DNA of 12,945 bases. Origin: a virus (Duplodnaviria > Heunggongvirae > Uroviricota > Caudoviricetes). Positions 1-12,945 of the stretch are shown here, one piece after another. The translations under genes were made by a program, and so were the position numbers. Every line of letters starts with the position of its first letter. Positions within the stretch are counted from its first letter, which is position 1. The stretch spans positions 1 to 12,945 of IMG/VR virus record IMGVR_UViG_2778261277_000020. One strand, given 5' to 3'. A model generated the notes under the pieces. That model worked only from the letters and a program-made list of their open reading frames with translations, was not told where the DNA came from and made no database searches.

Positions 1-1026
1 TTACTTGGAATATTTTCTTGGAATATTTTCAGGTAACGGGACATCAAGTGTTGGTGAAACTTTAACCTTCCTGTCATAGATTAGCACTTGCCCTTCGGTT
101 TTGTGACCAGAGAAAAGTTGCTTATCCCGGCTGCTTCCTTCATAGTCTGAAATTCCTTTCGCCTTCAGATCATGAAAGGTGAAGTCGGTTAAAATACCTG
201 AAATTTTGCCTGCGCGATTTCTTGCTTCTACCCACATTTCGTTAAAGCCTTTGTACATATATCGGTTGCCGTATTGATTGCTGATTACATAGGCGGATGT
301 TGGTAACTGTTTTGCTTTTTCGATCGCCGCCTGTAATCGTGGACTCCATGCTTTTATCTGTTTTTTCCCTGTTTTCCCTTGCTGGATAAAGATCCCGTCG
401 TTTCCAATCTGCTCCCATTTCAGCGATAACACATCGGAAACCCTCGCTGCACACAGATAGGCAATTTCCATTGCGATAAAAACAGGAAGAGGTGCAACGC
501 TTAATACTGCCTGGTATTCTTTGTCGGTTACATATCGTTCGCGGTTTTTGGCCTTGAATTTACTTACACCTGCACATGGGTTACCCTTCACGTACCCTCG
601 CTCATACCCCCAACTGTAAACGCGGGACATACTGCTTTTTTCATGGTTGGCTTGCGTTTTACTCTGTTCCCCTCTCTTGTCCATGTATCGACGGATGTGT
701 TCTGGTTTTATGGAATCTGCCGGCACCTTACCGAATACGGCAAGCAACTTTTTTTGATGTTGCAGATAATCTTTTTGTGTTCTTGGACTGAGGTCACTGT
801 AATAGGCGCTGGCGAGGAATTTTCCCCACAAACGACCGAATGTCATTGCGCGATCGCGATTATTTACAGTTTCCTCATACTTTTTCCATAAAGCAGCTAA
901 ACCATCCTTGATGGCGGTTAGTGTGACAGATTCTCTGGATGTTGGTTTCCATACATAACTATATTTATTTGGGTATACATTTGGAGGTAGTTTTTCGTGT
1001 TCAGGATTTTTCCTTCGTCTTCCCAT
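1..1026 (-). CDS. int: Phage integrase, tyrosine recombinase of the lambda Int family (complete, 341 aa)
   Basis: Full-length minus-strand ORF; N-terminus MGRRRK... resembles lambda Int N-terminal arm-binding region; C-terminal part has H/R/Y-containing segments (FHDLKAKG, GHKTEGQVLIYDRK) typical of the catalytic domain; start codon overlaps the xis stop (TAATG). Terminal position in a leftward operon, as in lambdoid phages. Confidence 0.9.
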   Translation of the reverse strand: MGRRRKNPEHEKLPPNVYPNKYSYVWKPTSRESVTLTAIKDGLAALWKKYEETVNNRDRAMTFGRLWGKFLASAYYSDLSPRTQKDYLQHQKKLLAVFGKVPADSIKPEHIRRYMDKRGEQSKTQANHEKSSMSRVYSWGYERGYVKGNPCAGVSKFKAKNRERYVTDKEYQAVLSVAPLPVFIAMEIAYLCAARVSDVLSLKWEQIGNDGIFIQQGKTGKKQIKAWSPRLQAAIEKAKQLPTSAYVISNQYGNRYMYKGFNEMWVEARNRAGKISGILTDFTFHDLKAKGISDYEGSSRDKQLFSGHKTEGQVLIYDRKVKVSPTLDVPLPENIPRKYSK

Positions 1027-1229
1027 TAGATTGCACCAAAATTCGGCTCTACCTCGCGTGGTGGTAAAGTTTTATTGCAGGTAAATAGATCCCGGCTGAC
1101 AATCGGTTTGCCACTACGATTGGTATAGAACGGAAGCCCGTTTTCCGTTAACCATTTTCGCTGGTGGCTTGCATATTTGCAGCCCGTTAATATCAGCAAT
1201 TCATCTTCGGTTAAAAATAAGCTGCTCAT
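1026..1229 (-). CDS. xis: Excisionase-like small DNA-binding protein (67 aa)
   Basis: Small basic ORF immediately upstream of, and translationally coupled to, int (stop/start overlap TAATG at 1024-1028). Position and size fit Xis; family assignment from memory only. Confidence 0.6.
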   Translation of the reverse strand: MSSLFLTEDELLILTGCKYASHQRKWLTENGLPFYTNRSGKPIVSRDLFTCNKTLPPREVEPNFGAI

Positions 1230-1246
1230 AGCTATATCTCATAACC

Positions 1247-1272
1247 GCCGCTAACTATATACGGTTAGCGGC
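1247..1272 (-). other. Perfect 9-bp inverted repeat (GCCGCTAAC / GTTAGCGGC, 8-nt loop) in the exonuclease-xis intergenic leader
   Basis: Read directly from sequence; no U-tract follows on the transcribed (minus) strand, so it is not a canonical intrinsic terminator. Confidence 0.4.
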
Positions 1273-1287
1273 AATTAGGGTTGAACA

Positions 1288-3672
1288 TTAAAAATCAGCC
1301 TGACTCGGGATCAGTTTTTGCCAGATAACTGAAACGTATTTTGCCTGGTAACGGGCGTCATCAAGTGCATTATGGCGCTCACCTTCGAATGGAATAGCCG
1401 TTCTGGCATCGAAGTCTATGGCTTTCCCCAGCTCAACGATTGTGCGTACATCGCGATCGTTGTGGTAGCGCCACGGGCAGGGGATCCCCTGCCGTTCATA
1501 TGAACGGCGTAAAATTACGTTGTCGAAGTTGGCTCCATTTCCCCAGACCTGAACAAAAAATTCACCGGAGTTTTCGGCGATAAATTCCCGCAATTGCAGT
1601 AGTGCATCATCTAACGGGATTTCATCGGTCAGAATGGTAGATTGCGCCTCGCGTGATTGCTTAAGCCACCATTTAATGGTGCCACGATCAATGACTCCGC
1701 CAGCAGTATCCAGATCGATGGTCTTACTAAATTCCGGTCCCATATCTCCGGTTTGCGGATCGAAAAATATTGCACCTATTGAGATAATCGGCGCATCAGG
1801 ATTTTTTCCCATCGTTTCAAGGTCGATCATTAGATGGTCACACGTCCTGCTGGTGGATGTGATAACGTGATGACCATTCACCGTAATTAAGGGATCTGTC
1901 GTCTCGCCAGTTTCACTATCGCTGGCGTGGTCCTGAGCGCTGCCAGCATTCTCCTTGTGTGGATGTTCAGCGCCTTCCATTTCCTCCGGATCTTTTTCCT
2001 GAGCTTCAGCCTGATTTTCTTTATCGAATGTTTCCTGGTATGTTGCGTCGCCCATCACTGCGCCACAATCAGGGCAGTTGCCTCCTCCCGGCTGACCGCA
2101 GGTATCGCAGACTTTCTCCTGCACAGGTTGATTTTCGACGTCGCTATTTTCCGTTTTTTCGACTTCATCTGAGAGGATTTGATGGCCGGGAATCCATTTC
2201 GGATCATTCGGGTCGCTAATCCCTTCAACAAATTCTCCGCGAGAGGCAGCCAGCAACTTATCGGCGTCAGGCTGGCTGACGTTTGCTGCCTGCATAATTT
2301 TGTTTACTTCGTTAGCGGTAACTTTTACCTGATTGACGGGATTTACCTGTGACTGAGCATCCAGCGGCTGCGTGTCCTGATGATGTTCAGTTGCATCCGG
2401 TTCCATTGTTTCAGCCGCTGCCTGTTCACATGCCATTGCGCCAGATGGTTGCGGTTTTTCTGCATCATTTTTTTCTTCTTCTGTTTCTTGCCCGGCAGCC
2501 AGCTCGCGGTTTATTTCTTCCAGAATATCTTTTTCCGGTGTATGTCGGGCAGCCGTGAGTGTTTCCTGGCTGGGGTTCTCGTGATCAGTCTCCGTTAAAT
2601 GGGCGTTGATATACCCCTGAAGGCGTCCCGGGTAGTGATAAAATTCAGGGTGTGCGCTTCGGATAAGTGCAAAAATAGCGGCGCGAGAGTAGTCCAGGAT
2701 ACCCGGGGTTGAGCGAAGTGCTGCTGACCACTCCCTGAACGGACTTTCTTTCTTCCGGACGATTTCTTTTGCGCGGCGATAAACGCTGCCAGGAATGTCA
2801 TAAATATTAAAATCCATCGGAAGCGTGGCTGCTGCAATCTCCAGATCCAGTGTATCGAGGGTGTGTACTAAATCCGGATTACGATCGGTTTTGTTTCCGC
2901 CTCCGGCATTTGCACCGGAAGCCGTACGGGTGATACGCGAAACACGATTTCCTTTCATCCACTCTTTTGTCAGCAGGCCGCGATCGGTGTAGTCAGCGTC
3001 CAGGTATGCTTCGAAAAAAGCAGTCATTAATCCCAGACTGGAATTAACGGGATTAGGGAAAACTTTGTCAGTGTCGCGAACCAGTTTGTGGTGGTCGCGA
3101 AGTTCCAGTGGGTCGAGCAGGCTGGTTTTGTGCGAAATAGCCAGGGCAGTAACTGCCGGTAGCTCTTCAGCCCGAGCGATATGTAATGCCTGAAGTTCAT
3201 CTCTTGAAACGTGTGTTACTGGTTTTTCGCTGCCGTGTTGAGCAAGCCAACGGATTGCCACCTCCTGACCGGAAACTGGCAGGAGCATGCTCTCCTCAAT
3301 CTCCGTCATGTCTTCGCCGTTAACATTGGTATTTTCGGTGCTGGCTGGTTTGTTCTGCACAGAGGGAGATGGCGCGGTGAATACCATTGTGATGCCATCT
3401 TCACCGCCTTTTTCATAGCGGTTACAGAATTCGGTATCAAACACGCCTTCTGGTGGAAGGTCATTCACAACAGGCAAATGGACGCGAACAGGTTTTTTAA
3501 AGTCCTCTTCGTCGTAACCAGCATCATCCATTGCGACATTACCGCGGGAAACTGCAACAGATAATTTTTTTGCTGTAGTCCAGTAAAAACCTCCTTTAAT
3601 ACCGAGACGTTTTCTGACTTTGTCATTTTTGGCTTCGTAATGGAGTGCAATGTCTTGTTTGTCAGTGCTCAT
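1288..3672 (-). CDS. Exodeoxyribonuclease VIII-like protein (794 aa): RecE-like N-terminal/central region fused to a C-terminal DEDDh (DnaQ-like) 3'-5' exonuclease domain
   Basis: ATG at 3672 with GAGG 9 nt upstream. Central segments ([57 protein letters not shown], Cys-x2-Cys...Cys-x2-Cys [17 protein letters not shown]) match my memory of the E. coli Rac RecE N-terminal region. The C-terminal ~180 aa carry DEDDh motifs (MIDLETMG; [10 protein letters not shown]; HNALDDARY). Confidence 0.8.
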
Positions 3673-3707
3673 TGTTTTTAACCTCAGCTAAGATTAAAAT
3701 TCCTCCG

Positions 3708-3767
3708 GAATGATGAATAAATGTCCCAGGTTCATCATTCTGGCCTGCACTGAGTGCAGGCCTTTTT
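3708..3767 (+). terminator. Two adjacent hairpins; the second (GGCCTGCAC...GTGCAGGCC followed by T5 at 3763-3767) has plus-strand intrinsic-terminator geometry
   Basis: Hairpin A: 10-bp perfect stem GAATGATGAA / TTCATCATTC (3708-3740). Hairpin B: GC-rich stem 3742-3762 then TTTTT. The T-run is on the plus strand, antisense to the leftward operon. Confidence 0.4.
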
Positions 3768-3772
3768 ACCAT

Positions 3773-4048
3773 TCAGATTTCATCTTTTAGTTCTGTCCCA
3801 ATCAGAGAGGCCAGATACATGTCTTTTTTTTCTGCAGGCAGATTCTTAATGATATGCACCAGACACATTTTTTTAACACCATCGTTAAGTGTTTTAACAT
3901 TTCCTGAGAAACCGTAGATATCAACCACAGTGAATGGGGTTTCTTTATTTTCTGTCTTAATTACGTAGCCAATACGCTTTTCTTCAAGATTAACCTCGTG
4001 AACAATATTATCAGCAGTAACAGTAGTGACTTCATAACTGGTAATCAT
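3773..4048 (-). CDS. Hypothetical protein (91 aa)
   Basis: ATG at 4048 preceded by AGGAGAAAAAT (strong SD); ORF track start at 4096 is an upstream non-ATG extension. No recognisable motif. Confidence 0.55.
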   Translation of the reverse strand: MITSYEVTTVTADNIVHEVNLEEKRIGYVIKTENKETPFTVVDIYGFSGNVKTLNDGVKKMCLVHIIKNLPAEKKDMYLASLIGTELKDEI

Positions 4049-4132
4049 ATTTTTCTCCTTAATTAAGGTTGAGTGAATCCCTGCCATTGCTGGCATATAA
4101 GAATGAAACCGTACATTTGTGACGTAGCTGCT

Positions 4133-4324
4133 TTAAATACTTGTCGTGACTTCTTTATTATCCTGACGAATAACTTTATCAACCTGATAACAGTTACCTG
4201 GAATTTTCTGTTCTTCTGCAGCAGCCATGCATTCTTTCATGGAGTTGTATATTCCTGTAACTATATCAACCGGTTCACCGGAAACAAGAAAAACAGTCAT
4301 AACAAGCGCGAATACTGTATTCAT
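4133..4324 (-). CDS. Small protein (63 aa) with hydrophobic N-terminus (signal peptide or single TM helix), two Cys
   Basis: ATG at 4324 with GGAGA 5 nt upstream; start overlaps stop of upstream gene (TGATG). N-terminus MNTVFALVMTVFLVSG is hydrophobic. Confidence 0.5.
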   Translation of the reverse strand: MNTVFALVMTVFLVSGEPVDIVTGIYNSMKECMAAAEEQKIPGNCYQVDKVIRQDNKEVTTSI

Positions 4325-4509
4325 CAGTGTCTCCAGAAAATACCAAGTCTGAGAAGAGCCATTCTGGAAAGTATGGAATTATCATTGAGAAAATAAGGCT
4401 CATATTTCCTCATATTAATGGCATCTTCAGTAAACTCACGGTTACTGATTTGAACACCAATTTCAAAACAACCTTCAGATGTATTGATGTTGGGTAATAA
4501 CGTTTCCAT
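4324..4509 (-). CDS. Hypothetical protein (61 aa)
   Basis: ATG at 4509 with GAGGAA 8 nt upstream; lies 14 nt downstream of the rha stop; same-strand operon context. Confidence 0.45.
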   Translation of the reverse strand: METLLPNINTSEGCFEIGVQISNREFTEDAINMRKYEPYFLNDNSILSRMALLRLGIFWRH

Positions 4510-4523
4510 TATCGTTTCCTCGA

Positions 4524-5078
4524 TCAATGGATATTAAGTAACTGCTCCACGGTCATATTTTTAATTACGTCCCTGTTCACAAGCGTCCATCCCTGTTTCT
4601 CCAGATAAAAGCGGAAGGTATCCAGGGTGCAGACCATTGCACCATCAGGAACGGTTTCAGTGAATTTGATGTTGCCGTGTTCGTCGAGACGGATAACCAG
4701 GGTACGTCCGTCCCCGTGAATCATTTTGTCGGGAGACGGGGCGTTATTCTGGCGCAGTTCTTTCTCCATGCGATCGAACTCAGCGATGTAGGCTTCTTTA
4801 AATGCAGCGGCTTTTTTGCCGGTGAAGCCCATCACCAGGAAAACGAAGCCGTTTTTGGTGATTTGGTACATAGGGAGTTTGCGTCCTGTTGAGTCGGTGT
4901 ATTCGCTCGACACAAAATTGTGCTCAGTGAATTTTGCTGAACAGTCCAGATTGCGAATTTTATCCAACACTCGTTCGTGGCGTTTACCAAAGAACTCGGC
5001 GATCGCAACAGACGTAGTGACAGCGCGACCATTTTCGATGGTTACATCAGGGTGATAAATGGTAGGGGTAGTAGCCAT
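4524..5078 (-). CDS. rha: Rha-family phage regulatory protein (184 aa)
   Basis: N-terminal ~100 aa (IENGRAVTTSVAIAEFFGKRHERVLDKIRNLDCS...MYQITKNGFVFLVMGFTGKKAAAFKEAYIAEF) match the Rha domain as I recall it. ATG at 5078 with GGAGG 8 nt upstream. The 282-aa ORF in the track is an in-frame upstream extension that contains a terminator hairpin. Confidence 0.8.
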   Translation of the reverse strand: MATTPTIYHPDVTIENGRAVTTSVAIAEFFGKRHERVLDKIRNLDCSAKFTEHNFVSSEYTDSTGRKLPMYQITKNGFVFLVMGFTGKKAAAFKEAYIAEFDRMEKELRQNNAPSPDKMIHGDGRTLVIRLDEHGNIKFTETVPDGAMVCTLDTFRFYLEKQGWTLVNRDVIKNMTVEQLLNIH

Positions 5079-5244
5079 GATGGCAGCCTCCGCGATGAAT
5101 TTAATTAACTCACCACCAGAGGTGCTAATCTCATGGGTGGTGAGACGCACAGGGTTAGCACTACCGGTCATCACGGAACCCGGCCAGCCTTGCGGCTGCC
5201 CTGCACGCCTCACCATAATGCGAATGTGGCTGTGCTTAACGCAT

Positions 5245-5267
5245 AAAAAAACCGCCTGAGCGCGGTT
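5245..5267 (-). terminator. Minus-strand intrinsic-terminator-like hairpin (6-bp stem AACCGC / GCGGTT, 6-nt loop) followed by U7
   Basis: Plus-strand sequence AAAAAAACCGCCTGAGCGCGGTT at 5245-5267; on the minus strand this is stem-loop plus TTTTTTT. Confidence 0.5.
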
Positions 5268-5948
5268 ATGCGCCGTGATTGACTTCGGGGTGCTAATCCC
5301 GGCACCCGTTTTATGAGGTGCAGATGAACTATAATTCCACCCGTACTGGTTTTCAATAGCTACATTCAACATTTTCTCTTACCCTTCATCACCGAAGTGA
5401 ACTTTGTTGATGCAGTGCCTGGTGCCTCCAGGTGACGTTAACCAGTTAACAATTAACGCCGGAATACAGAAGTATGCCCGTTACGCCCCGTAAAAGACCA
5501 CTTTACGGTTTTAACTGTTCCGCGTGCGCTTAGCCGCATTCACCGCATCACAAAATTCACTTTAAAAAGGGTGGCAGAGCAGTCACGGAGTAGAACTGAT
5601 GCCACCAAAGACTACACATGGGTATTGTGGCGGGGCTGTCACTTAAGCGTATGGTCAACCTGACAACCCGGTGCATTTTCTGGAGCAATGGAGGAAACCC
5701 CAGCCATACTTACCGCCGCGCCATTTCGCGGATTGCCACAACCGGAAGCGCACGTTCGAGGAAATCTAACGACAAGCCTTCTAAGGGAAAGAGCTTCGCC
5801 GTACGCTTTCGCGTTATGCCCTGACTTTTCAGGGAAATATCCTTTCAGTAAACTGTCAGTACCGGATTCTTATCCGTGTCCGGCGCACGACCGCACGTGA
5901 CAGCGTGTTGGTCTCCATTTTTAACCCAGAACCTCAATGGAGGATAAA

Positions 5949-6158
5949 ATGCCAAACAAAAAAAGAAATCCGCTTATTGAAAAACAGATTGAATGCCTGG
6001 TAAATCAACTCAGGCAATCAGGGTTATTAAAAACTCATTCAGAGTTGAGGCTCACAGAATCAGCATTCGACGATAAATTAAATAATGTCCTTTATAATGG
6101 CATTATTGATTTTAATCGTTCTGTTGGTCGCCGCGGCCCTGCTGGTGTTTCCTTATAA
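5949..6158 (+). CDS. Hypothetical small protein (69 aa), AT-rich
   Basis: ATG at 5949 with GGAGGA at 5939-5944; convergent with the next gene, stop codons back to back (TAA 6156-6158 / TAA on minus at 6159-6161). Confidence 0.5.
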   Translation: MPNKKRNPLIEKQIECLVNQLRQSGLLKTHSELRLTESAFDDKLNNVLYNGIIDFNRSVGRRGPAGVSL

Positions 6159-6809
6159 TTACCAGTCAATCCAGAGCGGACCGTGTTCAGCGTAAATATA
6201 ACTGTACACATCCAGATTATATTTGTGGTCTGTTAAGAACAGGCCGCAAATACATGCCGAAGCTTCCAGGGCAGCGGCTCTGTTACTGAATAACCATGTA
6301 GCAACATTCCAGCGTTTTTCTGCATCCCAGTCTTTCTCAAGGCCTGATACCATGAAGAAACCGTTAGTGTTGCCATCAAATAATTCTGTTTCCAGATTTT
6401 TAAGCAATGCCTGATGGACTCTTGCCAGGTATTCCGCCGGAATTTCGCCACGAATTCTGATGAGATTGTCATAAACAAACATGTTCCCCGCATATGGCGA
6501 TTTTTCTTTCTTGTTTTTTAAACCAGCATCATGAGCAAACTGATCAATTTCTTCTTCCGTTGGTTTCGTATTGATGTTTTGCGCTGTCGTTTCTGCAATT
6601 TTATTTGCCACACTCTCTGAGTCGTGTTTATTTATAGACGCACAGAAATACAATCCGGTAAACGCATCGCGCACATTACGAGCCATATTATCAGTGTCTT
6701 TTTTCGTTACCGATTCCAATTCAAGTTCGTTCAGACGATGACGAAGTGTGTGTGCTGCAATCTCTTGGATTGAAGGAGGTAAATCTTTAAATTCCATCGT
6801 CAACCTCAT
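6159..6809 (-). CDS. Hypothetical protein (216 aa from ATG 6809; 212 aa if ATG 6797), AT-rich, no TM segment
   Basis: ATG at 6809 overlaps the stop of the upstream 50-aa gene (TGATG); the alternative ATG at 6797 has GAGG 7 nt upstream. No motif I can name. Confidence 0.65.
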   Translation of the reverse strand: MRLTMEFKDLPPSIQEIAAHTLRHRLNELELESVTKKDTDNMARNVRDAFTGLYFCASINKHDSESVANKIAETTAQNINTKPTEEEIDQFAHDAGLKNKKEKSPYAGNMFVYDNLIRIRGEIPAEYLARVHQALLKNLETELFDGNTNGFFMVSGLEKDWDAEKRWNVATWLFSNRAAALEASACICGLFLTDHKYNLDVYSYIYAEHGPLWIDW

Positions 6810-6961
6810 CAGTCAGTGTTTCTGGCTAACCAGCGACGCGCGCCAGCTGCGGTTTTAAACGTTTTGCTTCTGGTATACGTCATCGCGGTAAACGTGCCGT
6901 CCAGGTTGGGGAATACTCCGCATACCAGAGATTCGTTGTTGCCAAGATTGAGCGTATCCAT
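6809..6961 (-). CDS. Hypothetical small protein (50 aa) with basic C-terminus
   Basis: ATG at 6961 with GAGG 5 nt upstream; first gene leftward of the OL-like palindrome; stop overlaps next start. Confidence 0.45.
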   Translation of the reverse strand: MDTLNLGNNESLVCGVFPNLDGTFTAMTYTRSKTFKTAAGARRWLARNTD

Positions 6962-7139
6962 GTTGACCTCATTTCCCCTTAACGCCGGGTAGCGGAACAA
7001 AAACCTGCTGCATAGTTATTAAAGTTGAACCCTGCCGTCATGTTCTTACGCCTCGGGCTGGCTACTTAACCCCTGACCACTGCCTGGTAACTCGAAGTAT
7101 TGCCTGGCGTTCTGTGGGCGGGGTGGGTTGGTGAATACA

Positions 7140-7186
7140 ATCTACAATTAAAAACTGTTTTATGTCAACAGTTTTTAATTGTAGAT
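7140..7186. promoter_or_regulatory. 47-bp perfect palindrome (20-bp arms ATCTACAATTAAAAACTGTT, 7-bp spacer): candidate OL-like operator
   Basis: Read directly; shares the half-site TACAAT(A/T)AAAAACTGT with the palindrome at 8178-8218; lies between the terminator after parE and the first leftward gene. Confidence 0.6.
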
Positions 7187-7192
7187 CTGAGC

Positions 7193-7215
7193 AAAAAAAA
7201 TCCCTCGAAAGAGGG
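7193..7215 (-). terminator. Minus-strand intrinsic-terminator-like hairpin (CCCTC-GAAA-GAGGG) followed by U8, downstream of parE
   Basis: Plus strand AAAAAAAATCCCTCGAAAGAGGG at 7193-7215; on the minus strand this is stem-loop then 8 U; about 20 nt past the parE stop (7235). Confidence 0.5.
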
Positions 7216-7234
7216 AGTATGAAAATTGTTCAGC

Positions 7235-7522
7235 TCAGATAGAGGAGGGAAATTGTCGGCGAGCATGTATCACGCTTACAATCTCAATGCTTGAAGCAGC
7301 TACTCTGTACAGGATTATGTAGTTAGGGTGGGTCACTATCTCTCTCACCCCTGAAACCCGTTCGCTTAGTGGATATAGGTACGGATGCTCAGATAGAGGT
7401 AATACCGATGTTTCAATGCGTATTTTTAGTCTGCGCGCTGCCGGTGGGTTCTCCTTGGCGATGTAAGTTATGATCTGACGCAAATCATCGCGAGCAGATG
7501 GTAGCCATAAAATGGGTAACAT
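7235..7522 (-). CDS. parE: ParE/RelE-family toxin (95 aa)
   Basis: Sequence LRQIITYIAKENPPAARRL...IVSVIHARRQFP is typical of ParE toxins; start overlaps the antitoxin stop (TAATG). Confidence 0.85.
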   Translation of the reverse strand: MLPILWLPSARDDLRQIITYIAKENPPAARRLKIRIETSVLPLSEHPYLYPLSERVSGVREIVTHPNYIILYRVAASSIEIVSVIHARRQFPSSI

Positions 7523-7713
7523 TACTCGCTCCTGTTAGTTACAACGATTTGAGCAATAAGATTTTCCATTTCAGCCATTACCTCGTCATGTGGAATTGCG
7601 GGACGAGGGTCTGCAAGGCTCGACGCTACTTTAGCGCGCAACCATTCGTTGTAACTGTTTTCTTGTTCGATAGTTTCGAATTCTGAAACTATCGGAGAAA
7701 GGGCTGTACCCAT
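7522..7713 (-). CDS. paaA: PaaA2-like antitoxin (63 aa)
   Basis: SEFETIEQENSYNEWLRAKVASSLADPRPAIPHDEV matches my memory of PaaA2 from the E. coli O157 paaR2-paaA2-parE2 module; GAGGAG SD 7 nt upstream of ATG 7713. Confidence 0.75.
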   Translation of the reverse strand: MGTALSPIVSEFETIEQENSYNEWLRAKVASSLADPRPAIPHDEVMAEMENLIAQIVVTNRSE

Positions 7714-7740
7714 GGCATAACTCCTCTTCTTGTACTGTGG

Positions 7741-8142
7741 TCACGCCCGGCGGCTTTTTTGTGCCGCCAGCCACCGGGCAATGGTTTCTTCCATTGATTT
7801 TTTCTTGTCTTTGATTTCTTGAAGCATTTTTTCTTGGTCTTCCTCAGGGAACGCACTAAAAGCCTGGAGCAGTTCGCGTTGGCGAGGACCAATTTTCATC
7901 GTGTCAGGGGTGAAAATTTGCTCCCCCTCTTCAGGAGGCAATAAAAACCAATGCAATGGATGCCCTGTAACCTCAACCAGTTTATCCAAACTTGAGGCTT
8001 TAGGTGTAGCCTTACCGCTGACCCATTGTTGAACAGTTTGTTGTGTCACACCAATTCTACGGGCAAGCTCAGCCTGGCTCCATCCAGTTTCCTGAAGAAG
8101 CTTGCTGATTCTGTACATAGATACTTCTAGGGCGCTCATCAT
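7741..8142 (-). CDS. paaR: PaaR2-like / CI-like HTH (XRE family) transcriptional repressor (133 aa)
   Basis: N-terminal HTH (WSQAELARRIGVTQQTVQQWVSG); first gene of the three-gene cassette; divergent from a cro-like gene across a palindromic operator; no SD before the ATG (possibly leaderless). Confidence 0.75.
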   Translation of the reverse strand: MMSALEVSMYRISKLLQETGWSQAELARRIGVTQQTVQQWVSGKATPKASSLDKLVEVTGHPLHWFLLPPEEGEQIFTPDTMKIGPRQRELLQAFSAFPEEDQEKMLQEIKDKKKSMEETIARWLAAQKSRRA

Positions 8143-8177
8143 TATTCAATTTTACAGGTAAATACTGTTAAAAGCAT

Positions 8178-8218
8178 TACAATAAAAAACTGTTGATCAA
8201 ATACAGTTTTTTATTGTA
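8178..8218. promoter_or_regulatory. 41-bp perfect palindrome (16-bp arms TACAATAAAAAACTGT, 9-bp spacer TGATCAAAT) in the divergent paaR / ydaS control region: candidate OR-like operator
   Basis: Read directly; sits between paaR start (8142) and ydaS start (8251); a TATAGT -10-like hexamer at 8228-8233 lies just downstream on the plus strand. Confidence 0.6.
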
Positions 8219-8250
8219 GCCTTTGCCTATAGTTTTTAGAGGAGGGGAAA

Positions 8251-8523
8251 ATGCTAGATAGCACTCGCGAAAAAATTAGGCAGAAATACACTCAGGCTGA
8301 AATAGGTCGTTATATGGGGGTCGCCCAACAGACCGTTTGGCAATGGTTTAGCTTTGGCGTCCCCCCAAAGCAGGTAATTCCGCTATGTCAGCTAATGAAG
8401 TGGGAAGTTACCCCGCATGAAATTCGCCCAGACATTTACCCTAACCCAACTGACGGTTTACCTGTTGGATGTAAGGCTAACACACCAAATGCACCGGAGA
8501 TGATTCATGAAAATCAAGCATGA
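8251..8523 (+). CDS. ydaS: Cro-like HTH protein of the YdaS family (90 aa)
   Basis: Strong SD GAGGAGGGG then ATG 8251; HTH AEIGRYMGVAQQTVWQW and the EIRPDI motif I associate with YdaS/Cro-like proteins; divergent from the repressor gene. Confidence 0.75.
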   Translation: MLDSTREKIRQKYTQAEIGRYMGVAQQTVWQWFSFGVPPKQVIPLCQLMKWEVTPHEIRPDIYPNPTDGLPVGCKANTPNAPEMIHENQA

Positions 8524-8932
8524 ACATATCCGCATGGCGATGAATGCCTGGGCGCATCCGGACGGCGAAAAAGTACCGGCTGCGAAAATTACCAAAGCGT
8601 ATTTCGAGCTGGGAATGACGTTCCCGGAACTGTATGACGACAGCCATCCGGAAGCCCTGGCTCGCAATACTCAGAAAATTTTCCGCTGGGTGGAGAAAGA
8701 CACCCCTGATGCGGTTAAAAAAATTCAGGCGTTGTTACCAGCTATCGAAAAAGCAATGCCACCTCTGCTGGTGGCCCGAATGCGCAGCCATAGCTCAGCC
8801 TATTTTCGGGAACTGGTGGAGACGCGGGAACGACTGGTGAGAGACGCTGATGATTTTGTCGCAGTGGCGATCGCTGGTTTCAACCAGATGAATCGTGGTG
8901 GCCCTGCAGGAAATATTGTGGCTGTGCATTGA
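8507..8932 (+). CDS. ydaT: YdaT-like protein (CII functional analogue), 141 aa
   Basis: Starts MKIKHEHI..., as I recall for Rac / CP-933P YdaT; overlaps ydaS by 17 nt; GGAGA SD 7 nt upstream. Confidence 0.75.
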   Translation: MKIKHEHIRMAMNAWAHPDGEKVPAAKITKAYFELGMTFPELYDDSHPEALARNTQKIFRWVEKDTPDAVKKIQALLPAIEKAMPPLLVARMRSHSSAYFRELVETRERLVRDADDFVAVAIAGFNQMNRGGPAGNIVAVH

Positions 8933-9003
8933 CTCGCAATATTCATACCGGATCACTTCCGGCAATTTGTGAGTAAAAAGATTCGGTATCAGAAGAGGTG
9001 AGT

Positions 9004-10044
9004 ATGGCTAACGCCTGGCTCAGATTATGGCATGACATGCCAAATGATCCTAAGTGGCGAACAATTTCCAGGGTGTCAGGACAGCCAATCGCAACAGTGA
9101 TGGCTGTGTATATCCACCTTCTGGTGAGCGCGTCACGAAATGTCACGACATGTCACGGCGTGTCACTACGTGGTCACATTGATGTCACGACGGAGGATTT
9201 AGCAAGTGCGCTTGATGTGACGGAAGAGGTAATTGATTCAATTTTACAGGCAATGCAGGGGCGGGTACTTGATGGAGATTTAATCTCTGGATGGGAAAAA
9301 CGCCAGGTACTGAAAGAGGACAATGGCAACGTTTCACAAACCGCGAAATCCCCGGCAGAGCGCAAGAGAGCGCAGCGCGAGAGGGAAAAATTACGAAAAC
9401 AGAATGAGGGGGGGCATGACGAGTCACGCATATGTCACGACATGTCACGACGAGTCACGACAGATAAAGATACAGATAAAGAATTAAACCCCACACATAA
9501 CGCGCGCGTGCGCGAGAGTGCTCCGACCAGTGAGTCGAATGGCGTGCCGTTGCAGGCAGCGGAACCTGATTACCTGGAAGGCCTGAGCGAACCCATCGGG
9601 AAATTTCCGATGACTGATGGCTGGCATCCGTCGCCGGATTTTCGACGGCGGGCAGCTCTGTGGGGAGTGGCTCTGCCGGAGCCGGAATTTACACCAGCTG
9701 AACTTGCCGCCTTCCGGGACTACTGGGCAGCGGAGGGTAAAGTTTTCACACAGGTTCAGTGGGAGCAGAAATTCGCCCGTCACGTAAATCACGTCAGGGC
9801 GCAGGTTAAACCAGTCAGCAAGGGGGGGAACCATGCAGCAGCACCAGGTGGCACCGCATCACGGGCAGTTCAGGAAATTCGGGCAGCACGTGAGCAGTGG
9901 GAACGTGAAAACGGATTTATCAGCGACGGAAACGGCGTGGAAGCTGTGGGAACTCATGGGGGAGGTTTATTCGAACCGCTGGACCCAGAAGAACGGGGCC
10001 GCACCTTCGAAGCTCTGGATTGCACAGATTGGTGCGATGACTGA
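9004..10044 (+). CDS. Replication initiator, lambda O-like (YdaU / DUF1376-type N-terminal domain), 346 aa
   Basis: ATG 9004 with AGAGG 5 nt upstream; N-terminus [36 protein letters not shown]; two iteron clusters inside the gene, as for lambda ori within O. Confidence 0.7.
9132..9190 (+). repeat. Iteron cluster 1: six direct repeats with GTCAC core at about 10-11-bp spacing
   Basis: CGTCACGAAA TGTCACGACA TGTCACGGCG TGTCACTACG TGGTCACATT GATGTCACGA read directly. Confidence 0.6.
9423..9482 (+). repeat. Iteron cluster 2 (four (T/A)GTCACGAC repeats, 10-bp spacing) followed by AT-rich direct repeat CAGATAAAGA x2: probable origin core
   Basis: GAGTCACGCA TATGTCACGA CATGTCACGA CGAGTCACGA CAGATAAAGATACAGATAAAGA read directly; iterons plus adjacent AT-rich tract is the classical lambdoid ori layout. 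Confidence 0.6.
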
Positions 10045-10510
10045 GCAGCAAATCCGACAGGTCTGCCGCCAGTGCATGGACCGCTGCCGGGCGGGTGAAA
10101 CATGGCCTCCGGACCTGGCTGAGTTTGTGGCGCTGATTTCGGAGAGTGGGGCAAATCCATTCGGTCTGACGGTGGATGCTGTGATGGAGGAGTACCGCCG
10201 CTGGCGCAACGACTCCTGGCGATACGACGGAAGCGATAAATACCCGTGGTCTCAGCCTGTGCTGTATCACATTTGCCTCGAGATGCGGGCAAAAGGGGTT
10301 GAGCGTCAGATGACCGAAGGGGAGTTAAAACGACTTGCAGAACGGCAACTGGCGAAATGGGCAAAACATGTTGGTATGGGCCTGAGTGTTCCGCCTGTCC
10401 GGCGACAACTGGCTGCACCAAAACGCCCGTCGGGACCAACGCCAGTTGAGTTGCTGAAACAGGAGTATGAACGCCGGAAAGCGGCTGGTTTTGTTGGAGT
10501 TGAGAAGTAA
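9833..10510 (+). CDS. Replication protein, lambda P-like (helicase loader), about 225 aa; start uncertain
   Basis: C-terminal half ([40 protein letters not shown]...[16 protein letters not shown]) resembles lambda P as I recall it. ATG 9833 has a G-rich SD (AGGGGGGG, 4-nt spacer) but implies a 212-nt out-of-frame overlap with the O-like gene; alternative starts at 9956 or 10037. Confidence 0.6.
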
Positions 10511-10532
10511 TTTTTACCGGGAGGAAATTTTA

Positions 10533-11303
10533 ATGGAAACTGTTTTTGATGCACTGAAAGCAATGGGAAAAGCCACGTCGGTGGAACTGGCTACGCGACT
10601 TGATATCAGTCGTGAAGAAGTGCTGAACGAGCTGTGGGAACTCAAAAGAAATGGCGTCGTTGATAAAACTGGTCACACCTGGTTTCTGGCTGGCGAAGGT
10701 GAATCCCGGGTAACCGAAGAGCGGCCAGTAAAATCTGAAGCACAGGATATGCTGACCGGGGAGGTCGAACAAAAAGTTACCGCAGACATGATGATTGAGT
10801 TTATCGGTCAGGAGGGGGCTAAAACGTGTGAGGAACTGGCGGGTAAGTTCGGTGTCAGTACTCGCAAAGTTGCTTCCACGCTGGCTGTGGTAACCGCAAC
10901 GGGGCGGCTGGCACGCGTTAATCAGAACGGTAAATTTCGTTACTGCATGCCGGGCGATAAGTTACCAGCAGAGCCGAAATCCGTGCCGGTAACGGAAAAT
11001 GATGGTAAGGCCTTTCCTCAGCCAGCAGGTGTTGCGTTACCAGTACAGGAAGGGGCAACACAGGAAGATATAAAAACAGAAACTGTAGCGGACATTGTGC
11101 AATCGTTGCCATCGTTTACTGAAACGCGAGCGGATGACCTGGTTTTACCATCGCTGCATATGGCAAACCGCGAATTGCGTCGGGCGAAAAATCATGTTCA
11201 GAAGTGGGGGCGTGTCTGCGCCGCGCTGCGGGAGCTGAACAAGCACCGGGATATTGTTCGACATATTACGGATTCTTCCCGCCGTGTTGCATCGGAAAAG
11301 TGA
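10533..11303 (+). CDS. Hypothetical protein (256 aa) with two winged-helix-like segments
   Basis: ATG 10533 with GGGAGG 8 nt upstream; two segments with wHTH-like pattern (ATSVELATRLDISREEVLNELWELKRNGVV; KTCEELAGKFGVSTRKVASTLAVVTATGRLARV). Confidence 0.6.
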   Translation: METVFDALKAMGKATSVELATRLDISREEVLNELWELKRNGVVDKTGHTWFLAGEGESRVTEERPVKSEAQDMLTGEVEQKVTADMMIEFIGQEGAKTCEELAGKFGVSTRKVASTLAVVTATGRLARVNQNGKFRYCMPGDKLPAEPKSVPVTENDGKAFPQPAGVALPVQEGATQEDIKTETVADIVQSLPSFTETRADDLVLPSLHMANRELRRAKNHVQKWGRVCAALRELNKHRDIVRHITDSSRRVASEK

Positions 11304-11318
11304 TTGCCGGAGGCGCTT

Positions 11319-11741
11319 ATGGCAAAAGTATTTACACAAGAAGAGCGGGAAAAAATTAAAGGGCAGGTGGTTGAACTCGTGCGCCAGAGCGGTCGTGAGA
11401 CGTTACGGCAACTGGAAGCCAAGACAGGTGCGACAAGATATCTGATGAGCGTTCTCGCCAGAGAGCTGGCTGCCAGTGGCGATGTATACAACTCTGGTTA
11501 CGGGTTATTCCCGTCTGAACAGGCGCGTAAGGACTGGCAAAATGCCCGTAAAAAGCTCTCAAGGGCAAAGCTGAAGAAACCATCTGCGGTTGATCCGGAC
11601 CTTATCTGGTCATTACCAGACGGAGAAATACGTCGCTACGACAGTCGCCTAAACATAATCTGTCGCGAGTGCCGGAAGAGCGAAGTTATGCAGCGTGTAC
11701 TGGCTTTCTATCAGGGTAATTTTCAGGAGGCGGTACTGTGA
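11319..11741 (+). CDS. Hypothetical protein (140 aa)
   Basis: ATG 11319 with GGAGG 5 nt upstream; no recognised motif. Confidence 0.55.
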   Translation: MAKVFTQEEREKIKGQVVELVRQSGRETLRQLEAKTGATRYLMSVLARELAASGDVYNSGYGLFPSEQARKDWQNARKKLSRAKLKKPSAVDPDLIWSLPDGEIRRYDSRLNIICRECRKSEVMQRVLAFYQGNFQEAVL

Positions 11742-11798
11742 GTGAAATTAGCTATCAGGCTTCAATTACCGCTGGCATTCGCATCAAAGGAGAGGAGC

Positions 11799-12155
11799 AT
11801 GGAAATAAAACCAGAAGATGAGTTAAGCAATATCGTTTTATTTCCGGTAAAAGAGGATGACCCTCGTAATCAGGTTAATTTTCTTTATGAGCCATCGGAA
11901 AGACCATATTGCCATCACGCTTCTGTCCGGGTTGACGAAAAAGAGCGTCAGGTCCGCTGTAAAATCTGCGGTGCAGTTGTGGAGCCATTTGACTGGATGC
12001 TCTCTGTGGCGAAAAGAGAAACCAGACTGGCAGATGATGTAAGGCTATTGCGCCAGGAGGAACAGGAAAGACGGAAAAATATAGAAAAGTTAATTCAGAT
12101 TGAGCGTAACGCGAAAGCGCGGATACGCAGGGTGACAAAATCCAGAACTGAATAA
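11799..12155 (+). CDS. Hypothetical protein (118 aa) with Cys/His cluster (CHH...CKIC), possible zinc ribbon
   Basis: ATG 11799 with AAGGAGAGG upstream; C-terminal half charged and helical-looking. Confidence 0.55.
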   Translation: MEIKPEDELSNIVLFPVKEDDPRNQVNFLYEPSERPYCHHASVRVDEKERQVRCKICGAVVEPFDWMLSVAKRETRLADDVRLLRQEEQERRKNIEKLIQIERNAKARIRRVTKSRTE

Positions 12156-12250
12156 TTAAATTTAGCACTGTTAAAAATTCGATCCTTAACCGGAGGGATT
12201 TCTGCACCCTCAGAACATCAGGAGGCCGCCCGAAAGGGCGGTAACAAATA

Positions 12251-12727
12251 ATGCAAGAAATCAAAGAAAATATCAGGCAACAGCTTTACGGGTTTTATAT
12301 TGCTTATGATTTGTGGCTGAAGAACGGGGCAAAACCCGGCGGAGTGTTTTCTCAAAATTATGGTTTATGCGCCAATCTTTTCGATTATCTCACATTAATT
12401 GGTACCCCCTGTGAGGCAGCGCTGGAGCAATTACACGCTGATTTCAGAAGTGCCGGGCTGAATGAGGCGTTGCCGTTTAACGAGGGTAAAGAGCATTACC
12501 ATGAAGAAAGAGGGCACAACATGTGCCATATGAATCCGGCACGAGTGGCGTGGGTCAGGGCGCAGACAGGGCAGCCAGCGCCGGAAGGACTGGTTAAAGC
12601 GGTGCGCTTCTATGAACAGGTTAAGCGTGAAAATCCGCCAGTCGAAACCGGAGCATGGAAAGACGCTGTTGACTGGGTTCTCGAAGAGGCTTGTCAGGCT
12701 GTAAACATTCGCATCAAAGGAGAGTGA
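12251..12727 (+). CDS. Hypothetical protein (158 aa)
   Basis: Long ORF with consistent coding look; GGAGG lies 25 nt upstream, separated from the ATG by a GNRA-loop hairpin. Confidence 0.6.
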   Translation: MQEIKENIRQQLYGFYIAYDLWLKNGAKPGGVFSQNYGLCANLFDYLTLIGTPCEAALEQLHADFRSAGLNEALPFNEGKEHYHEERGHNMCHMNPARVAWVRAQTGQPAPEGLVKAVRFYEQVKRENPPVETGAWKDAVDWVLEEACQAVNIRIKGE

Positions 12728-12729
12728 GA

Positions 12730-12945
12730 ATGCAAATTTCACCGGTTACTCTTCGTGTTGCGAAGGCGTTTATATCCAGACATCACCGACACAATAAACC
12801 ACCTGTTGGGCATAAATTCAGCATTGGTCTGATAAATGATGCCGGAGAATTGATAGGTGTGGCGACAGCTGGTCGACCTGTTGCACGACATTTGGACGAT
12901 GGATTAACGCTTGAAGTAAATCGCACATGTACCACAGGAGAACGC
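12730..12945 (+). CDS. Hypothetical protein, 5' part only (runs off the right edge)
   Basis: ATG 12730 preceded by AAAGGAGAG; open frame to the window end (MQISPVTLRVAKAFISRHHRHNKPPVGHKFSIGLINDAGELIGVATAGRPVARH...). Not in the ORF track because no stop lies within the window. Confidence 0.45.
   Translation, partial: MQISPVTLRVAKAFISRHHRHNKPPVGHKFSIGLINDAGELIGVATAGRPVARHLDDGLTLEVNRTCTTGER

Follow-up and report, generated by a model that had tools for sequence, protein, structure and literature searches.

Are two convergent genes that abut stop to stop within a prophage operon simply neighbors, or are they two halves of one system? This question is raised by a locus in a 12,945-nt stretch of DNA from a virus of the Caudoviricetes (positions 1 to 12,945 of IMG/VR record IMGVR_UViG_2778261277_000020), which as a whole is termed here the window. 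The locus comprises a 69-amino-acid (aa) gene on the plus strand (5949-6158), whose ATG follows a GGAGGA Shine-Dalgarno (SD) sequence at 5939-5944, and a 212-aa gene on the minus strand (6159-6797; "Ybl81" in some records). In thousands of genomes, both carry no annotation beyond that of a hypothetical protein. Together with the leader of the small gene they form an exchanged cassette (5890-6817, as delimited by blastn breakpoints) in the slot between ydfA and dicF of a dicBF-type operon. Our tentative answer, to which we attach somewhat less than even confidence, is that the 69-aa gene makes up, with the C-terminal domain (C-domain) of the 212-aa protein, an antagonistic module of cognate partners, an exchangeable cassette that would be switched by convergent transcription.

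A sequence-only reading of the window had described the two genes as ending on adjacent stop codons with no terminator between them, and both points held up. The stops are joined in the hexamer TAATTA (6156-6161) with zero spacing, a scan detected no terminator-like site between the convergent genes, and the zero-gap junction is retained in 65 of 67 related viral contigs, for which reason it cannot be ascribed to chance. All 67 IMG/VR loci encoding the small protein, which were retrieved via that protein, carry an open reading frame (ORF) for the C-domain in convergent orientation directly behind it. The identities of the small gene and the C-domain co-vary (100% with 100%, 83-86% with 75-85%), and those of the N-terminal domain (N-domain) of the large protein and of dicB vary independently of this pair.

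The earlier reading had overlooked that this strict pairing extends across two prophage backbones. Distant homologs of the C-domain sit in Cox-type prophages, in which an integrase gene and a helix-turn-helix (HTH) repressor gene precede Cox and the gene for the C-domain, the latter two being encoded on the opposite strand. In each of the eight such loci examined (L003-L006, L079-L082), a convergent ORF of 64-69 aa is found at the 3' end of the C-domain gene; it was called or listed in seven of them and was recognized in L080 from translation only. The overlap between small and large gene is 11-53 nt in the loci where it was measured. The Cox-type C-domains are 27-31% identical to that of the window (alignment A3), or 40% in L079, and are joined to another N-terminus, with or without an HTH motif. 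Their small partners are 44-52% identical to the 69-aa protein and have in common with it the motif QxE...QL..SGLLK...F..KL and a C-terminal RRGPAGVxL; the DNA of these loci has diverged past blastn detection, yet the small protein keeps these invariant motifs. On both backbones, the proteins of this class have opposite charges, the small protein having an isoelectric point (pI) of 9.5-9.7 vs 4.6-4.9 for its partner, the latter value referring to the isolated C-domain (window) or to the whole protein P0179 (Cox type). An obligatory link between the pair and DicF was considered and dropped, as the Cox-type loci are without DicF above the Rfam threshold.

Also unnoticed in the earlier reading was that the 212-aa protein is modular and polymorphic. 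That reading had the gene translationally coupled to the 50-aa gene upstream through a TGATG motif. The motif exists at 6807-6811 but yields a 216-aa product; the start codon that is conserved is the ATG at position 6797, which is preceded at six bases by GAGG and lies 11 nt past the ydfA stop; this start is used by RefSeq and by PHROG 2151, the function-less family to which the protein belongs, and six related loci lack the upstream ATG. The protein is acidic and consists of the N-domain, a linker and the C-domain. The N-domain (approximately aa 1-50; 6648-6797, minus strand; defined by exhaustive phmmer searches) ends in NVRxAFxGLY and is common to proteins with at least four other, unrelated C-termini. 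Matches confined to it span residues 1 to 50-85 in phmmer and residues 1 to 55-75 in PHROGs 1363, 9419, 6937 and 33007. The C-domain (aa 98-212; 6162-6506, minus strand) has a predicted alpha/beta composition and belongs to no known family. Its sole distant relatives, P0175 and P0179, have a different N-terminus, which in one of them includes an HTH_3 domain, and display the 27-31% identity of alignment A3, or 33-39% over the stretches matched by phmmer.

Each of the other classes that carry the N-domain has a convergent small ORF of its own: a 179-aa protein is paired with an 80-aa zinc-ribbon-like ORF, a 201-aa protein with a 63-aa ORF, a 124-aa protein with a 73-aa ORF, and a 113-aa protein with a 64-aa ORF. 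These small ORFs lie on or beside the 3' end of the large gene, with overlaps of 11-23 nt measured for the 179-, 201- and 124-aa classes. With the present pair included, there are five classes, in each of which the common N-domain is followed by a different C-terminus and a matched convergent small gene. As in polymorphic toxins, a conserved N-terminus is thus combined with a variable C-terminus and a matched small 3' gene, in several types; family and fold searches found no recognizable toxin domain and no secretion or delivery domain. The layout is like that of CdiA-CT/CdiI and Rhs-CT/RhsI (PMC4436062), in which a conserved N-terminal part extends to a short motif (here NVRxAFxGLY) and is followed by a variable C-domain and a small 3' gene, with several alternative cassettes at one locus. 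Unlike the CdiA and Rhs systems, however, the window proteins are tiny and without delivery machinery or a recognized toxin domain, and the partner gene is convergent. A more far-reaching version of our proposal is that the slot hosts a new polymorphic effector/immunity family, in which the N-domain would carry interchangeable effector C-domains, each neutralized by its cognate small protein, expressed in the lysogen from a common structured leader; the system would set exclusion or compatibility specificities between related prophages and would again be flipped by convergent transcription once the early operon is switched on. We regard this version as possible but doubtful.

The same observations bear on the alternative that the two are independent accessory genes sharing one cassette, the 69-aa gene being a lysogen moron in the position and orientation of SieB and the 212-aa gene encoding an early host-takeover or anti-defense protein. 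The slot does elsewhere hold plus-strand genes that have no N-domain partner (Rac sieB, the gene for the ECs_2282 zinc-binding protein), and recombination would be unlikely to separate two genes at zero intergenic distance. Against independence stand the recurrence of the pair in Cox-type prophages, where both the flanks and the N-terminus of the large protein differ, and the four further N-domain variants with their own distinct convergent small ORFs. We consider independence unlikely, though by no means negligible.

The small gene itself behaves as a genuine coding sequence. Its product belongs to PHROG 4274 (E=1.2e-51), a family with no assigned function, and is basic (pI 9.7), hydrophilic (grand average of hydropathicity, GRAVY, -0.53), soluble and non-membrane. 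An AlphaFold2 model (pLDDT 73) places helices at residues 8-24 and 37-61, suggesting a helical hairpin with a tail, and the conserved C-terminal tail reads GRRGPAGVxL. The ratio of nonsynonymous to synonymous substitution rates (dN/dS) is 0.08-0.27 for the small gene, 0.22-0.24 for the C-domain and 0.4-0.7 for the N-domain; because of the first two values we judge both genes real, and comparison of their sequences indicates purifying selection on both ORFs. Such values, well under 1, and the conservation of the protein across backbones leave little room for a spurious 69-aa ORF. Nor do the data favor the related possibility of a diverged core lambdoid function, which has only its position to recommend it: neither cassette protein has a Pfam or NCBIfam match to Gam, Kil, CIII, Ea10/Ssb or Ral at E<=0.1-1, in keeping with the lack of recognizable families in the sequence-only reading, and most related prophages are without the cassette. 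A spurious ORF or a disguised core function is accordingly the least credible account we weighed, and we think it extremely improbable. Wider searches were likewise unproductive. PHROGs returned only the function-less families 4274 and 2151, Pfam scans of domain alignments with relaxed cutoffs did not rise above noise, PDB sequence profiles had no match under E=0.3 for either protein, a BFVD structure search had no match at E<=0.001, and a PDB structure search with the 69-aa helical hairpin had none. Two further ideas, a SUKH-like immunity fold and a tail resembling an AT-hook, had no tool support and were dropped.

A run of seven A residues (5958-5964) spans codons 4-6 of the small gene and is reduced to six, with a frameshift, in seven IMG/VR loci. 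The six-A variants cluster in old draft assemblies, and in two of these loci the large gene, too, is frameshifted at homopolymers, for which reason the variants are probably sequencing errors; phase variation at this run was therefore dropped as a candidate.

Three plus-strand hairpins recur ahead of each small gene, whatever the class and on both backbones. The first, HP1 (5859-5886; GCCGGA...UCCGGC), is predicted to form the 5' end of the small-gene mRNA and also marks the left recombination boundary; it is invariant in 11 diverse loci, and its two U.G wobbles, present in 10 of the 11 sequences, pair on the plus strand only, which favors the plus strand as the structured one. The stem sequence of HP2 (5891-5912) depends on lineage (CACG/CGUG, CCCAAC/GUUGGG, CCCGA/UCGGG or CUCCAC/GUGGAG), each version folding in its own sequence. 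HP3 (5913-5942) pairs an anti-SD element, CUCCAU (5913-5918), with AUGGAG (5937-5942), which holds the SD sequence of the small gene; 97% of cells are paired across 11 loci, and classes B and E display one compensatory change from A-U to U-A. A candidate weak sigma-70 promoter, TTTTCA-N17-TAAACT (5826-5854, plus strand), can be read from the sequence; it matches 8 of 12 positions, falls under the scan threshold, stops 7 nt short of HP1 and is retained by every dicBF-type locus.

The observed co-inheritance, anatomy, polymorphism, purifying selection and conserved leader structure can be joined in a mechanism in which convergent transcription acts as the switch. The dicBF promoter is described as pL-like and repressed by DicA (PMC6832061, PMC5069750). 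In the lysogen, the operon would be off and only the small gene would be transcribed, from its own weak plus-strand promoter, with translation kept low by the conserved hairpin that hides its ribosome-binding site. Upon derepression or infection, strong leftward transcription would make the 212-aa protein, and the same transcript, running antisense through the small gene, would shut the latter down by transcriptional collision and RNA pairing; as a consequence of this antisense shutdown, the balance would flip from the small protein to the large. The large proteins form a family in which a conserved N-domain carries a variable C-domain, each type with its own convergent small partner, in the manner of toxin/immunity cassettes. 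Expression of the small gene in the lysogen and physical contact between the two proteins are presumed in this scheme, and we infer that its biological role likely lies in phage-phage or phage-host conflict.

The polarity of such a module could run either way. The large protein may be an early effector against which the small protein protects the lysogen, or the small protein may be a SieB-like exclusion factor from which the large protein would let the phage itself escape. That the small protein is the active partner, sensitive to dosage, is hinted at by its stronger conservation and by the sequestering of its ribosome-binding site; the polymorphic architecture of the C-terminus points instead to the large protein as effector.

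We read the pair as antagonistic because its anatomy parallels that of sieB/N, of ionophoric colicin immunity and of polymorphic toxin/immunity cassettes. In lambda, sieB (plus strand) and N (minus strand) have directly adjacent stop codons with zero gap, like the window pair. (The two ORFs lie within 1683-2639 of L087, lambda J02459, a record whose feature table, as served, leaves out sieB.) In Rac, sieB overlaps the DUF1391 gene ydaF by 4 nt in convergent orientation and lies downstream of it, in the same slot as the window cassette. As with sieB, the 69-aa gene opposes the early-left operon beside the immunity region and converges on an early gene. SieB differs in being ~160-185 aa in length and in having no dedicated convergent partner domain, whereas the window protein has 69 aa and is soluble and basic; homology of the 69-aa protein to SieB was not found, PHROG 4274 being its only family match. 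For ionophoric colicins, the immunity gene lies on the opposite strand under its own promoter within an inducible operon that also includes a lysis gene (PMC9517006), an order resembled in the window by the 212-aa gene, the opposite-strand 69-aa gene, and then dicF, dicB and ydfD. The window proteins differ from the colicin proteins in lacking sequence or fold similarity and secretion or receptor-binding domains, and the small protein is not a membrane protein. BstA/aba (PMC8585504) offers an analogy only, that of a factor expressed in the lysogen whose effect on the lytic cycle of the prophage itself is cancelled by a linked element; its self-immunity element is DNA rather than protein, and neither component is homologous to the window pair.

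A conventional addiction-type toxin-antitoxin (TA) pair that stabilizes the prophage would also account for two small neighboring genes with products of opposite charge, and a bona fide ParE/PaaA2 module close by attests that such cargo occurs in the region. The genes are convergent, however, and not co-transcribed as type II modules would be; the large gene lies in a repressed operon, so that the two products would not be made together in the lysogen; and neither Pfam, NCBIfam nor PADLOC offers a match to a TA family. An addiction module strikes us as very improbable. As for type I modules, in which the mRNA of a small hydrophobic toxin has a sequestered SD sequence and is opposed by an antisense RNA, the window has a hairpin sequestering the SD sequence and a full-length antisense arrangement; the 69-aa protein is hydrophilic and basic.

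Several observations weigh against the antagonistic module. No sequence or fold tie links either protein to any toxin, immunity, defense or anti-defense family, and Pfam, NCBIfam and PADLOC scans of both proteins were without a match, PADLOC giving 0 families at E<=1. For the 212-aa protein, AlphaFold2 gave a poor model (pLDDT 57), suggesting a helical N-domain and a beta-beta-alpha-beta-alpha C-domain, and the residues that are invariant in the C-domain do not resemble a catalytic set. The other N-domain classes are without charge complementarity. Within Escherichia coli, co-variation of the two genes could come from tight linkage alone, independent support being provided only by the Cox-type loci. 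The scan predicted no consensus-grade plus-strand promoter upstream of the small gene. Literature searches on DUF1391, ybl81, the WP accessions, the PHROG identifiers and antisense transcription of ydfC yielded nothing relevant and no paper on these genes. Finally, the promoter-like region, HP1, HP2 and the anti-SD element (window 5820-5930) are also kept in canonical ydfB-ydfC loci, which have no small ORF (L002, 3455-3560; L084), and for this reason the leader may serve another purpose.

One such purpose would be an RNA-level safety lock, in which plus-strand transcription or antisense RNA limits read-through into the toxic dicF-dicB region and the proteins are secondary. In addition to the persistence of the leader in canonical loci, the lack of a terminator between the convergent genes and the high toxicity of dicBF expression (PMC5069750) would fit such a lock. 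It does not explain the purifying selection on both ORFs, nor a small protein that remains 44-52% identical, with invariant motifs, between backbones whose DNA blastn no longer aligns, and the Cox-type loci have no DicF at the Rfam threshold to be guarded. This account we hold to be improbable. Whatever its purpose, the conserved plus-strand leader leads us to predict that ordinary dicBF operons, that of K-12 Qin included, make an as yet unreported transcript antisense to ydfC; the flank containing HP1 is also matched in K-12.

Returning to the antagonistic module, its status as an exchangeable cassette is supported by sharp borders. Homology to phage Tritos, whose gene order is ydfA-ydfB-ydfC-dicF, ends at 5889 and returns at 6818 by blastn, and the left border at 5889/5890 is identical in comparisons with five further locus types. 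The cassette takes the place of ydfB-ydfC between ydfA and DicF, the canonical Qin operon being ydfA-ydfB-ydfC-dicF-dicB-ydfD (PMC5069750). The promoter region, ydfA, DicF, DicB, YdfD and the plus-strand leader elements downstream of the slot are common to Qin and the window; ydfB and ydfC themselves are co-directional small genes unrelated to both cassette proteins. The slot is elsewhere filled by ydfB-ydfC, the ECs_2282 zinc-binding gene, sieB (Rac) or other hypothetical pairs. The earlier suggestions of separate acquisition and of a cassette that varies among related prophages are thus borne out by the breakpoints at 5889/5890 and ~6817 and by these differing slot contents. An AT-rich segment had also been claimed, correctly: GC content is 41.2% in the cassette and 40.5% at 5940-6800, compared with 51.0% at 5000-5889, 46.4% at 6818-7700 and 47.6% in the whole window. 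This segment ranks at the 5.6th percentile of all 861-bp windows in the stretch, though it is not the lowest, the dicB-ydfD stretch (3675-4535) having 36.7%. What did not survive is the inclusion of the 50-aa gene in the cargo as an unrecognizable protein. It is YdfA (6809-6961, minus strand; DUF1391, Pfam PF07151, E=1.7e-28), the conserved first gene of the operon, 91% identical to the Tritos copy, with a GC content of 51.6%, and it flanks the cassette from outside 5890-6817.

Of 5426 complete E. coli genomes, 568, or about one in ten, carry the cassette when at least 80% of query 5400-7250 is required; strains of O157:H7, O26 and O111 are among them. Two scans of species-representative genomes found no locus, and both protein families are limited to Escherichia and Salmonella in word-index searches of billions of proteins and in exhaustive phmmer searches. 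Its general kind, accessory cargo in a pL-like operon with an antisense lysogen gene, is already known; for the pairing, the polymorphic architecture and the leader, we found no earlier description in the literature. If the pair does consist of an effector and its antagonist, the lambdoid prophages would gain a class of conflict modules that is compact and convergently wired, and this would explain the variability of the slot.

Taken as a whole, the window corresponds to the left arm of a lambdoid prophage of the Qin/Rac type, together with its immunity region. The sequence-only reading had placed the cassette at the accessory position of the lambda pL operon, which stands insofar as the operon is a pL-like, immediate-early leftward one beside the immunity region; it is, however, of the Qin/Rac dicBF type and not lambda-like in detail. 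Its features are those of dicBF operons, with a DicA/CI-type repressor, a divergent Cro-like gene and a leftward promoter of the repressible type, followed on one strand by the DUF1391 gene, DicF, DicB and YdfD. Through DicF and DicB, dicBF operons act on cell division, metabolism, virulence regulation and phage resistance. The repressor ORF (7741-8142) is DicA-like (NCBIfam DicA, E=4.4e-14, under the curated cutoff), and Cro-like and YdaT-like ORFs (8251-8932) diverge from it. The leftward dicB-type promoter-like site, TTGACA-18-TAGATT (7139-7186, minus strand), was identified by promoter scan. A perfect 20-nt inverted repeat (ATCTACAATTAAAAACTGTT / AACAGTTTTTAATTGTAGAT; window 7140-7186) flanks its -35 element, and this palindrome is probably the operator of the DicA-like repressor. 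The ParE toxin/PaaA2 antitoxin pair (7235-7713) sits between the repressor gene and the leftward promoter and is followed by a terminator-like site at 7216-7201.

Downstream of the cassette, the same leftward transcript includes the DicF small RNA (5569-5620, minus strand; Rfam RF00039, 61.1 bits, E=1.2e-11), DicB (4324-4527; Pfam, E=7.4e-33) and YdfD/DUF1482 (4133-4324; Pfam DUF1482, E=5.9e-21). Also on the minus strand, a PRK09790-like ORF lies between YdfD and a RecE-type exonuclease (1288-3672), and the stretch begins with an integrase gene (1-1026), accompanied on the same strand by an Xis-like ORF. Between DicF and dicB are inserted the RNAs C4 (81 bits) and isrK (68.7 bits) and an Ash/Rha fusion ORF on the minus strand (5133-5372 and 4524-5372, respectively); this insertion, a P1/Gifsy-type immunity module of the c4-ant style within the dicBF operon, is missing from the O26:H11 locus, which is elsewhere 94% identical. 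C4 is also found downstream of the gene pair in Cox-type loci. A match to STnc100 on the minus strand between DicF and isrK (5403-5557) is below the Rfam threshold (30.8 bits; gathering score 47). Just upstream of DicF, ~200 nt of non-coding sequence (5621-5818) are 77-82% conserved in Cox-type prophages (L003, 6180-6378; L079, 2979-3177), where the block is equally far from the small gene in loci that carry no DicF above the Rfam threshold.

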